Below, piece after piece: positions 5,245-55,403 of a stretch of DNA of 64,000 bases. The position numbers and the translations under genes were made by a program. This stretch comes from Escherichia coli. GTDB taxonomy: Bacteria > Pseudomonadota > Gammaproteobacteria > Enterobacterales > Enterobacteriaceae. Below the pieces are notes generated by a model that was not told where the DNA came from, did no database searches, and saw only the letters and a list, made by a program, of their open reading frames with translations. The stretch's first letter is position 1. Each line of letters starts with the position of its first letter. The DNA lies in NCBI RefSeq assembly GCF_003018235.1, contig NZ_CP027437.1. One strand, written 5' to 3'.

Positions 5245-5331
5245 GCCGAGGTGGTGGAATTGGTAGACACGCTACCTTGAGGTGGTAGTGCCCAATAGGG
5301 CTTACGGGTTCAAGTCCCGTCCTCGGTACCA
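5245..5331 (+). tRNA. leuU: tRNA-Leu (leuU type)
   Basis: 87-nt sequence GCCGAGGTGGTGGAATTGGTAGACACGCTACCTTGAGGTGGTAGTGCCCAATAGGGCTTACGGGTTCAAGTCCCGTCCTCGGTACCA read directly; long variable arm; encoded CCA end; directly downstream of secG. Confidence 0.95.
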
Positions 5332-8231: not shown

Positions 8232-8308
<77 letters not shown>

Positions 8309-8431
8309 CTTTCCCTTAGAGTCCTTTTTCAAATATACTGTGAAGACTTCGGCCTTCGTAGTGGGATTTGAAAAAATCCTTCTGGAAAGTGCTCCAGACC
8401 GCAGTTGCGGTTATAGGGTTCAGTTATATAA

Positions 8432-8456
8432 AGCCCCGATTTATCGGGGTTTTTTG
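8432..8456 (+). terminator. Attenuator/terminator hairpin in the metY-rimP leader
   Basis: Hairpin agccccgatttatcggggt followed by tttttt. Confidence 0.5.
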
Positions 8457-8514
8457 TTATCTGACTACAGAATAACTGGGCTTTAGGCCCTTTTTTTATG
8501 TCTTGGGGGTGGGC

Positions 8515-13194: not shown

Positions 13195-13268
13195 ATGCGG
13201 GATAAGGCGTTTACGCCGCATCCGGCATGGATTGCCTGATGCGACGCTGGCGCGTCTTATCAGGCCAA
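13195..13268. repeat. REP (repetitive extragenic palindromic) element pair
   Basis: gcgggataaggcgtttacgccgcatccggca and tgcctgatgcgacgctggcgcgtcttatcaggcc, typical E. coli REP units in the infB-rbfA spacer. Confidence 0.6.
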
Positions 13269-13744: not shown

Positions 13745-14688
13745 TGAGTCGTCCTCGTCGTCGCGGTCGCGACATTAACGGCGTGTTGTTGCTGGATAAA
13801 CCGCAGGGTATGTCCAGCAACGATGCGCTGCAAAAAGTGAAACGGATTTATAACGCCAACCGTGCCGGGCATACCGGTGCGCTGGACCCGCTGGCAACTG
13901 GCATGTTGCCAATTTGCCTCGGGGAAGCGACGAAGTTTTCCCAGTATCTGCTGGACTCCGACAAACGCTATCGGGTGATTGCGCGTCTTGGACAGCGTAC
14001 CGATACGTCTGACGCCGATGGACAAATCGTTGAAGAACGTCCGGTAACCTTTAGCGCAGAGCAACTGGCGGCGGCACTGGATACTTTCCGTGGCGATATC
14101 GAACAGATCCCATCGATGTATTCAGCACTGAAATACCAGGGCAAAAAACTGTACGAATATGCGCGTCAGGGCATTGAAGTACCGCGTGAAGCGCGCCCGA
14201 TTACCGTTTATGAATTGCTGTTTATTCGCCACGAAGGCAATGAGCTGGAGCTGGAAATTCACTGCTCAAAAGGCACTTATATCCGCACCATTATTGATGA
14301 CCTGGGTGAAAAACTCGGTTGTGGCGCGCATGTTATTTACCTGCGTCGTCTGGCGGTAAGTAAATATCCGGTTGAACGGATGGTGACCCTGGAACATCTG
14401 CGTGAACTGGTTGAGCAAGCCGAACAGCAGGATATTCCGGCTGCGGAGTTACTTGATCCATTACTGATGCCAATGGACAGTCCAGCTTTGGACTACCCGG
14501 TGGTGAATCTTCCGTTAACGTCTTCTGTTTACTTCAAAAATGGTAACCCGGTTCGTACATCCGGTGCGCCGCTGGAAGGACTGGTTCGCGTTACAGAAGG
14601 TGAGAACGGCAAGTTTATCGGTATGGGCGAAATTGACGATGAAGGCCGCGTCGCGCCTCGTCGCCTGGTGGTTGAATACCCGGCGTAA
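13744..14688 (+). CDS. truB: tRNA pseudouridine-55 synthase
   Basis: 314-aa ORF; [11 protein letters not shown] catalytic motif; start overlaps the rbfA stop. Confidence 0.97.
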
Positions 14689-14740
14689 TGTTAACCGTCT
14701 TGCGATAACAGGTCGCTACGAGTAGAATACTGCCGCTTAA

Positions 14741-15106
<366 letters not shown>

Positions 15107-15123
15107 TTCTTGCGAGTTTCAGA

Positions 15124-15150
15124 AAAGGGGGCCTGAGTGGCCCCTTTTTT
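15124..15150 (+). terminator. rpsO terminator hairpin
   Basis: Hairpin gggggcctgagtggcccc followed by tttttt. Confidence 0.65.
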
Positions 15151-15352
15151 CAAGCTGACGGCAGCAATTCACTGGAAACTAATGTATTGTTGCTATGAAT
15201 GATCTTCCGCTGCAGAGGTTCGCGCGGCTAATGAGAGGCTTTACCCACATAGAGCTGGGTTAGGGTTGTCATTAGTCGCGAGGATGCGCAGAAGATCGGG
15301 TATTAACACCAGTGCCGTAAGGTACTGTCTAAGAAAGAGAAAGGATATTACA

Positions 15353-17488
15353 TTGCTTAATCCGATCGTTCGTAAATTCCAGTACGGCCAACACACCGTG
15401 ACTCTGGAAACCGGCATGATGGCTCGTCAGGCTACTGCCGCTGTTATGGTTAGCATGGATGACACTGCGGTATTTGTTACCGTTGTTGGCCAGAAAAAAG
15501 CCAAACCAGGCCAGGACTTCTTCCCACTGACCGTTAACTATCAGGAGCGTACCTACGCTGCTGGTCGTATCCCGGGTAGCTTCTTCCGTCGTGAAGGCCG
15601 CCCAAGCGAAGGCGAAACCCTGATCGCGCGTCTGATTGACCGCCCGATTCGCCCGCTGTTCCCGGAAGGCTTCGTCAACGAAGTTCAGGTTATCGCCACC
15701 GTGGTTTCTGTTAACCCGCAGGTTAACCCGGATATCGTCGCGATGATTGGTGCTTCCGCAGCACTGTCTCTGTCTGGTATTCCGTTCAATGGTCCGATTG
15801 GTGCTGCCCGCGTAGGTTACATCAATGACCAGTACGTACTGAACCCGACTCAGGACGAACTGAAAGAGAGCAAACTGGATCTGGTTGTTGCCGGTACTGA
15901 AGCCGCTGTACTGATGGTTGAATCTGAAGCTGAACTGCTGAGCGAAGACCAGATGCTGGGCGCAGTAGTGTTCGGTCATGAACAACAGCAGGTTGTTATT
16001 CAGAACATCAATGAACTGGTGAAAGAAGCCGGTAAACCGCGTTGGGACTGGCAGCCGGAGCCGGTAAACGAAGCGCTGAACGCGCGCGTTGCTGCACTGG
16101 CTGAAGCTCGTCTGAGCGATGCTTACCGTATCACCGACAAACAAGAGCGTTATGCGCAGGTTGATGTCATCAAATCTGAAACCATCGCGACGCTGCTTGC
16201 TGAAGACGAAACCCTGGACGAAAACGAACTGGGTGAAATTCTGCACGCTATCGAGAAAAACGTTGTTCGTAGCCGCGTACTGGCAGGCGAACCGCGTATC
16301 GACGGTCGTGAAAAAGATATGATCCGTGGTCTGGATGTGCGTACTGGCGTGCTGCCGCGTACTCACGGTTCTGCGCTGTTCACCCGTGGTGAAACTCAGG
16401 CGCTGGTTACCGCAACGCTGGGTACTGCTCGTGACGCGCAGGTTCTTGATGAACTGATGGGCGAACGTACCGATACCTTCCTGTTCCACTACAACTTTCC
16501 TCCGTACTCCGTAGGCGAAACCGGCATGGTCGGTTCTCCGAAGCGTCGTGAAATTGGTCACGGTCGTCTGGCGAAGCGCGGCGTGCTGGCAGTCATGCCG
16601 GATATGGACAAATTCCCGTACACCGTACGTGTAGTGTCTGAAATCACCGAATCCAACGGTTCTTCTTCTATGGCTTCCGTGTGCGGCGCGTCTCTGGCGC
16701 TGATGGACGCAGGTGTGCCAATCAAAGCTGCCGTTGCGGGTATCGCAATGGGTCTGGTGAAAGAAGGCGACAACTACGTTGTACTGTCTGACATTTTGGG
16801 CGACGAAGATCACCTGGGCGATATGGACTTCAAAGTTGCAGGTTCCCGCGACGGTATCTCTGCACTGCAGATGGATATCAAAATTGAAGGTATCACCAAA
16901 GAGATCATGCAGGTTGCGCTGAATCAGGCTAAAGGTGCGCGTCTGCATATCCTGGGCGTAATGGAACAGGCGATCAACGCGCCGCGCGGCGATATCTCTG
17001 AGTTCGCTCCGCGTATCCATACCATCAAGATCAACCCGGACAAGATCAAAGACGTTATCGGTAAAGGCGGTTCTGTTATCCGTGCTCTGACCGAAGAAAC
17101 TGGCACCACCATCGAAATCGAAGATGACGGTACTGTGAAAATCGCAGCGACCGACGGCGAGAAAGCGAAACATGCTATTCGTCGTATCGAAGAGATCACT
17201 GCAGAAATCGAAGTGGGCCGCGTCTACAATGGTAAAGTGACCCGTATCGTTGACTTTGGCGCATTTGTTGCCATCGGCGGCGGTAAAGAAGGTCTGGTAC
17301 ACATCTCTCAGATCGCTGACAAACGCGTTGAGAAAGTGACCGATTACCTGCAGATGGGTCAGGAAGTACCGGTGAAAGTTCTGGAAGTTGATCGCCAGGG
17401 CCGTATCCGTCTGAGCATTAAAGAAGCGACTGAGCAGTCTCAACCTGCTGCAGCACCGGAAGCTCCGGCTGCTGAACAGGGCGAGTAA
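15353..17488 (+). CDS. pnp: Polynucleotide phosphorylase
   Basis: ORF 15266..17488; PNPase sequence begins [21 protein letters not shown] at the TTG at 15353 (E. coli pnp uses a UUG start); RNase PH, KH and S1 domains. Confidence 0.95.
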
Positions 17489-17499
17489 GGTTGCCATTT

Positions 17500-17526
17500 G
17501 CCCTCCGCTGCGGCGGGGGGCTTTTA
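17500..17526 (+). terminator. Hairpin after pnp
   Basis: GC-rich hairpin ccctccgctgcggcgggggg followed by ctttt. Confidence 0.5.
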
Positions 17527-17596
17527 ACCGGGCAGGACGCCTTGTTAGCAACCGGGAACAGGACGTTCATTCAACCGTGGTCTTCGGGAGTGGGAA

Positions 17597-55026: not shown

Positions 55027-55403
<377 letters not shown>

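Follow-up and report, generated by a model that had tools for sequence, protein, structure and literature searches.

What is written on each strand of the short spacer between rpsO and pnp, and which of the two strands selection has maintained, are the questions raised by this locus. We analysed a 64,000-nucleotide stretch of Escherichia coli DNA (the window), in which rpsO (14837–15106, plus strand, 89 aa, stop codon TAA at 15104–15106) and pnp (15353–17488, plus strand, 711 aa, TTG start codon at 15353–15355) flank a 246-bp spacer (15107–15352). These limits hold as given in a first-pass annotation made from the sequence alone, and the K-12 MG1655 pnp start, 3311168, maps to 15353 under the conversion w = 3326521 − k between K-12 (k) and window (w) coordinates. 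The conservation with the K-12 interval that the annotation anticipated was found: the alignment spans 271 nt with no indels and a single mismatch, at 15210. An 801-nt query covering the spacer region matched 5,425 of 5,426 complete E. coli genomes, with at least 99% identity in 5,393 of those matching. One genome had no match, one carried two copies and one record held a plasmid copy.

The spacer is almost certainly the E. coli rpsO–pnp intercistronic control region, read on both strands and including the antisense RNA SraG (Table 1). This control region and its antisense RNA are already known in detail. PNPase is a major RNA-degrading enzyme, and several layers of control over its level are packed into these 246 bases. 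SraG transcription and ends, RNase III and RNase E cleavages and toeprint inhibition are taken from experiments in K-12, while sequence identity, coordinates, folds, conservation, covariation and strand asymmetry come from our analysis of the window.

Table 1 Elements of the rpsO–pnp spacer in window coordinates
Feature	Position	Strand	Basis or remark
Conserved single-stranded block GAGTTTCAG	15114–15122	plus	Directly 5′ of T1
Bidirectional intrinsic terminator T1 (= SraG terminator T)	15123–15150	both	Inverted repeat I3, folds
pnp P2 promoter region, −10 block AACTAATGTATTGT at 15177–15190	~15177–15197	plus	Inferred
Hairpin R, RNase III substrate, 97 nt, 37 pairs	15201–15297	plus	Inverted repeats I1 and I4; MFE −48.0 kcal/mol
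Sole difference from K-12	15210	both	C here, T in K-12
Small hairpin CAGTGCC-GTAA-GGTACTG	15310–15327	plus	MFE fold; between hairpin R and Shine–Dalgarno
pnp ribosome-binding site: AAGGA 15341–15345, 7-nt spacer, TTG 15353–15355	15341–15355	plus	Sequence
SraG primary transcript, 216 nt	15338 (5′) to 15123 (3′)	minus	K-12 b4449 mapping, Rfam
SraG promoter −10 box TAATAT	15350..15345	minus	−12 to −7 from SraG start; same in K-12

We placed SraG by coordinate mapping and by a covariance-model search. The K-12 RefSeq sraG gene (b4449, 3311183..3311398) maps to the minus strand with no indels, and 215 of 216 bases are identical, the window having a G at 15210 where the K-12 RNA has an A. The Rfam model RF00082 (SraG; gathering score 50) matched the same strand at 15294..15123 over its full length (model positions 1–177; 162.4 bits, E = 1.4e-29). 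Both results support the suggestion in the first-pass annotation that SraG is encoded opposite the spacer. Its limits, which that annotation left open, can now be set at 15338..15123 because the sequence matches that of K-12 sraG, for which circular RT–PCR has located both ends (PMC5029454). The older 174-nt form of SraG, to which the Rfam model corresponds, starts near 15296; the 42-nt gap between the 5′ ends of this form and b4449 exists because the start was remapped, circular RT–PCR with and without polyphosphatase having shown that transcription in K-12 truly begins 42 nt 5′ of the position annotated in 2001 (Fontaine et al. 2016, PMC5029454).

SraG lies entirely within the spacer, on the strand opposite to rpsO and pnp. 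It is antisense to the entire pnp leader, stopping 3 nt short of the Shine–Dalgarno sequence, and also to the last 30 nt of the rpsO mRNA, and its minus-strand fold is more stable than shuffled sequences (z = −4.1). A permissive Rfam search of 14650–15500 returned no further family in the spacer. Among the E. coli records listed, none had an annotated feature under the spacer, while the curated K-12 record does carry sraG; most E. coli genome annotations thus seem to lack the RNA. The practical gain of this analysis is the SraG annotation itself, and we attach little importance to the identification beyond correct annotation.

The SraG promoter lies outside the RNA, with a −10 box located 6 nt upstream of the mapped start, between the pnp Shine–Dalgarno sequence and start codon. 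The minus strand upstream of 15338 reads ...GCAATGTAATATCCTTTC. No good −35 element was found, the best agreement being 3 of 6 positions at spacings of 15–19 nt. A consensus promoter scan found the rpsO P1 promoter and reported neither pnp P2 nor the SraG promoter; we do not count this against either, as −35 elements are poor in both. The P1-like site consists of TTGCGA, 17 nt and TAGAAT at 14700–14728. In K-12, mutation of the −10 box abolished the 216-nt SraG (PMC5029454), and identity with this gene of demonstrated expression suggests that SraG is transcribed in the window strain as well. Cappable-seq supplements held no entry for the rpsO–pnp locus in either coordinate version, and SMRT-Cappable-seq gave the rpsO unit only. 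A longer antisense transcript has been predicted, with its start 339 nt further upstream than the SraG promoter (PMC5029454); our promoter scan found no promoter-like site at its predicted start.

SraG and the rpsO mRNA have a terminator in common. T1 has the sequence AAAAGGGGGCC-TGAGT-GGCCCCTTTTTT, with stem arms at 15123–15133 and 15139–15149, a loop at 15134–15138 and a T-run at 15145–15150, so that the earlier placement of the rpsO terminator hairpin at 15124–15150 was correct to within 1 nt. Read on the plus strand, it gives GGGGGCC-TGAGT-GGCCCC followed by TTTTTT; read on the minus strand, it gives GGGGCC-ACTCA-GGCCCC followed by CTTTTCT. The minus-strand form was found by a terminator scan, which missed the plus-strand form, probably because extension of the stem consumes the T-run. 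The K-12 rpsO unit defined by SMRT-Cappable-seq (3311784–3311369; supplement, PMC6131387) maps to 14737–15152. Its 3′ end at 15152 shows that T1 is used as a plus-strand terminator, and the K-12 SraG 3′ end (3311398) maps to 15123, so that in K-12 data T1 has 3′ ends on both strands. T1 thus serves both transcripts, as the end point of rpsO mRNA in one direction and of SraG in the other. Its GC stem and flanking A and T tracts were kept in 93 of 113 Enterobacterales species. The block GAGTTTCAG on its 5′ side had a mean identity to the window of 94% across 73 species, exceeding that of its flanks. In K-12, the rate-limiting RNase E cut of rpsO mRNA falls 10 nt downstream of the stop codon (Le Derout et al. 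2010, PMC2834685), and the block probably contains this 'M2' site, with the cut at about 15116.

Downstream of T1, the plus strand is highly structured. The segment 15107–15370 had a minimum free energy (MFE) of −101.3 kcal/mol, whereas 200 shuffled versions averaged −75.1 ± 4.7 kcal/mol and none of them folded as well (z = −5.6), in keeping with the earlier description of a long structured leader preceding the TTG start. The MFE fold contains four hairpins: T1 (15123–15149, with an outer extension spanning 15115–15156), a hairpin at 15160–15194, hairpin R, and a 7-bp hairpin at 15310–15327. It also contains a long-range helix between 15107–15112 and 15330–15335, which we rejected, as only 36–44% of cells could pair across species.

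The P2 promoter probably starts transcripts at about 15192–15197, directly downstream of the AACTAATGTATTGT block; the surrounding stretch, 15176–15193, showed 83% identity in a comparison of 73 species. The sequence aligned to the P2 −10 region is TATAATGTATTGT in Kluyvera and Pseudocitrobacter. Hairpin R, a long and near-continuous stem in which the coordinates of every pair sum to 15503, is the RNase III element that the first-pass annotation had assigned to the leader, and matches that of K-12 except at 15210. The K-12 RNase III sites lie 39 and 77 nt downstream of the P2 start (PMC5029454), and published lengths for the P1–t1 (420 nt) and P1–RIII (502 nt) transcripts (PMC2834685) differ by 82 nt, which puts the upstream cut at about 15233. 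The geometry of hairpin R, with a 38-nt spacing and a 2-nt 3′ overhang, would put the cuts after 15233 and 15271. We therefore infer that RNase III cleaves at two sites, RIII1 after about 15233 and RIII2 after about 15271, with the two lines agreeing on 15233. Processing would expose a candidate CsrA site, the GGA at 15282–15284, a proposal that draws on a summary of Park 2015 (PMC5029454). The small hairpin faces the functionally essential 5′ 42 nt of SraG, and 30S subunits bound at the ribosome-binding site give a toeprint 15 nt from the UUG (PMC5029454).

These elements suggest a scheme in which both strands control pnp. Transcripts from the rpsO promoter would stop at T1 or read through into pnp, with P2 starting pnp-only transcripts at ~15192–15197. 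RNase E would cut at ~15116, just 5′ of T1, and start rpsO mRNA decay. RNase III would cut both sides of hairpin R, and PNPase would then remove the protective 5′ duplex, thereby limiting its own synthesis; in K-12, RNase E inactivates the pnp mRNA once the duplex has been cleaved by RNase III and degraded by PNPase (PMC5029454). CsrA, which represses translation of the processed pnp mRNA (PMC5029454), would add translational repression. On the minus strand, a weak sigma-70 promoter would start SraG at 15338, and T1 read backwards would end it at 15123. With full complementarity to the pnp leader, and with its first 42 nt pairing up to 3 nt from the Shine–Dalgarno sequence, SraG would keep the 30S subunit off, create extra RNase III cuts and slightly lower pnp mRNA and PNPase.

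Experiments in the K-12 strains N3433 and MG1655 have demonstrated SraG production and repression of pnp (PMC5029454). The full 216-nt RNA lowered pnp mRNA, a pnp–lacZ fusion and PNPase, and abolished the 30S toeprint, whereas the form without the first 42 nt did neither; new RNase III cuts appeared in the SraG–pnp duplex (PMC5029454). Loss of the promoter through the −10 mutation raised pnp mRNA and PNPase 1.3-fold, and overexpression of SraG lowered pnp (PMC5029454). In the window, the SraG 5′ end lies 3 nt from the Shine–Dalgarno sequence and well within the region covered by the 30S subunit, so the anatomy fits the published account. For the window strain, identity with K-12 suggests that SraG represses pnp modestly as well.

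The same literature bears on whether SraG might be mainly a trans-acting, Hfq-binding small RNA that regulates distant mRNAs, with its effect on pnp secondary. The affinity of SraG for Hfq is sub-nanomolar to nanomolar, and in Yersinia pseudotuberculosis SraG represses the YPK_1206–1205 operon (PMC5029454). However, both the level of SraG and its action on pnp were unchanged when hfq was deleted. In E. coli, none of ten candidate targets picked by microarray and prediction proved positive, and the operon repressed in Yersinia lacks homologues in other genera (PMC5029454). We regard a mainly trans-acting role as highly improbable and, on the basis of this literature (PMC5029454), do not class SraG as an Hfq-dependent trans-acting RNA.

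We then compared the spacer across Enterobacterales. A retrieval anchored on the conserved N-terminal codons of pnp, and so independent of the spacer, gave 120 loci from species-representative genomes, from which 113 spacers were extracted and 73 species aligned. The 113 spacers were 201–535 nt long, mostly 239–270 nt, and led to a TTG start codon in 109 species and GTG in 4, with AAGGA-like motifs upstream. The best-conserved parts were the GAGTTTCAG block, the arms of hairpin R and the P2 −10 block. Identity to the window across the 73 species was 83–85% in the hairpin R arms, 21% in the R loop and 45% in 15298–15338. The structure derived from the window was also retained, with 82% of cells able to pair compared with 39–47% when the partners were slid by 1–3 columns. 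In hairpin R, 95–97% of cells were paired and several pairs showed two-sided changes, including 15212:15287 (GC in 47 species, AU in 21) and 15219:15284 (UA in 64, CG in 8). All 7 pairs of the small hairpin showed two-sided changes, with 68.5% of cells paired in a stretch that aligns poorly.

As a G·U pair on one strand corresponds to an unpairable A·C on the other, these alignments indicate which strand is under selection. Across the 73 species, hairpin R contained 365 G·U cells, pairable in the pnp leader only, and 23 A·C cells, pairable in SraG only. The position 15220:15283 was U·G in all 73 species and 15227:15276 was G·U in 72. When the two strands of the hairpin R segment were folded separately, the plus strand was the more stable in every one of the 73 species (mean −45.7 kcal/mol, against −28.0 kcal/mol for the minus strand). 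The excess of G·U pairs and the greater stability of the plus strand argue that hairpin R is maintained for the pnp leader and that the SraG stem is its weaker mirror image. Selection on the structure of SraG itself is not evident, since the conserved G·U pairs become A·C in SraG.

The SraG promoter was conserved in part of the order. Of 113 species, 39 had the exact −10 hexamer TAATAT and 58 fitted TAnnnT; TTCTGT or TTCTAT occupies this position in Enterobacter and Klebsiella. Rfam SraG matches were nonetheless obtained in all 15 species tested (72–164 bits), with scores of 123–133 bits in Enterobacter and Klebsiella. A score that is kept without the −10 box mostly measures T1 and hairpin R, and is not independent proof of an antisense RNA. 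The Rfam score is thus largely explained by sense-strand elements, and the existence of SraG rests on the K-12 experiments. More generally, a covariance-model match to an antisense small RNA can arise entirely from conserved elements of the sense strand.

These results raise the alternative that both the conservation and the Rfam match reflect sense-strand elements only, the antisense RNA being incidental, weak transcription from the A/T-rich spacer of the ribosome-binding site, with no selected function. The strand asymmetry of hairpin R, the patchy −10 box and the scores kept by Enterobacter and Klebsiella despite a degraded box all favour it, as does the position of the 5′ 42 nt of SraG in the least conserved part of the spacer. 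SraG is also poorly expressed, with a chromosomal effect of 1.3-fold and no phenotype found (PMC5029454). Yet in K-12 the transcript does exist, its ends are defined and its promoter is open to mutation; in vitro it prevents the 30S subunit from binding, its induction reduces pnp, and an autoregulation mutant known from older work falls in this very −10 box (PMC5029454). Furthermore, an antisense RNA pairs with its target without any need for sequence conservation. We therefore consider incidental transcription unlikely, and retain the reading of SraG as a modest repressor of pnp.

A narrower proposal concerns the family rather than the RNA in this window. The weaker mirror hairpin, together with a promoter that is intact in about one third to one half of Enterobacterales, makes it possible, at somewhat less than even chances, that SraG is a lineage-restricted by-product of the pnp leader and not a conserved small-RNA family. 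In that case, many of the matches labelled 'SraG' in databases, when they fall outside Escherichia/Citrobacter/Photorhabdus-type sequences, would indicate an rpsO terminator and a pnp leader instead of an antisense RNA that is expressed. The strand asymmetry and the patchy promoter are the only points here that go beyond the literature; they weaken the case for a conserved small-RNA family, not the identification of SraG in the window.

We also considered whether the spacer codes for protein, either as a small open reading frame (ORF) or as part of a longer pnp beginning at TTG 15266, in place of the RNA elements. A program-made ORF list extends pnp in frame to this codon (15266–17488, 740 aa) and includes a 58-aa minus-strand ORF at 15241..15417. 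However, the K-12 pnp start is TTG 15353, which is supported by the 30S toeprint (PMC5029454), spacer lengths differ between species by non-multiples of three, the poorly conserved 15298–15338 lies within the proposed coding stretch, and the 58-aa ORF begins upstream of the SraG start and so is absent from the SraG transcript. A coding role has, in our judgement, next to no likelihood. We rejected TTG 15266 as the pnp start, the stretch upstream of 15353 being an RNA leader that is not conserved as protein, and rejected the 58-aa ORF as coding. A further ORF of 740 aa (15329–17551, minus strand), antisense to all of pnp in the codon-aligned frame, is a shadow ORF and not a gene: it is free of stops because pnp has no TTA, CTA or TCA among 712 codons. 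That this ORF and the extended pnp ORF are both 740 aa long is a coincidence.

Comparison with known systems places the window closest to K-12. Its SraG corresponds to K-12 SraG (PsrO; b4449; RF00082) in locus, strand and length, with an identical −10 box, start and terminator. Its hairpin R is the same 97-nt element as the K-12 RNase III hairpin, about 55 nt upstream of the UUG. The E. coli antisense RNAs GadY (gadX–gadW) and AsflhD (flhD) are likewise fully complementary to their targets and form duplexes with the mRNA that are RNase III substrates (PMC5029454, PMC9600491). Unlike these, SraG blocks the 30S subunit beside the Shine–Dalgarno sequence and ends at a bidirectional terminator common to it and the upstream gene. 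Antisense RNAs also occur at the rpsO–pnp locus in Listeria (RliD) and Enterococcus (ref41, at pnpA); they have no sequence similarity to SraG, and their function is putative (PMC5029454).

The single difference from K-12, the C at 15210, changes the U·G pair 15210:15288 of the pnp leader to C–G; in SraG, it turns what was an A·C mismatch into G–C. It is rare: the window allele over 15181–15240 was matched exactly by just 34 of 5,425 E. coli genomes, and a C–G at this pair was unique to the window among the 73 species. On the plus strand, hairpin R was predicted to fold to −48.0 kcal/mol with C and −46.1 kcal/mol with T, a gain of about 2 kcal/mol; on the minus strand, where the lower stem of SraG is predicted to be slightly tighter, the values were −37.7 and −33.4 kcal/mol. 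The allele may thus make the RNase III hairpin, and also its mirror stem in SraG, slightly stronger. As 15210 lies outside both promoters and about 23 nt away from the predicted RNase III sites, we expect little or no functional effect.

Some lineages carry additional sequence in the spacer. Erwiniaceae spacers, in 11 Pantoea/Erwinia and three Tatumella loci, were about 60 nt longer. The Erwiniaceae sequence includes an extra inverted repeat, for example AATCTGATC...GATCAGATT, within the first ~70 nt after the rpsO stop codon and before the conserved GAGTTTC–terminator block. Insertions of 100–300 nt were seen in Kluyvera (L012, L086), Pseudocitrobacter (L027), L068 and L064 (Serratia), Hafnia (L023) and L021. 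Those of Kluyvera and Pseudocitrobacter end in GGGTATAATGTATTGT, giving a perfect TATAAT where E. coli has ACTAAT. The insertion in L068 splits the terminator stem, and that in Serratia lies between hairpin R and the Shine–Dalgarno sequence.

Elsewhere in the window, Rfam searches also recovered other structured RNAs. Upstream of the spacer, within the rpsO control region (14700–14893), the S15 translational-operator leader (RF00114) matched at 14779–14893 with 117.6 bits; the K-12 rpsO transcription start, 3311784, corresponds to 14737. The remaining matches, at 5245–5328, 8232–8305, 8397–8497, 13196–13266 and 55027–55403, include two tRNAs, the rimP leader (RF01770, 102 bits) and RNase P RNA (RF00010, 319 bits). 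A match to naRNA4/CssrE (RF02564, 77 bits) lies between infB and rbfA.
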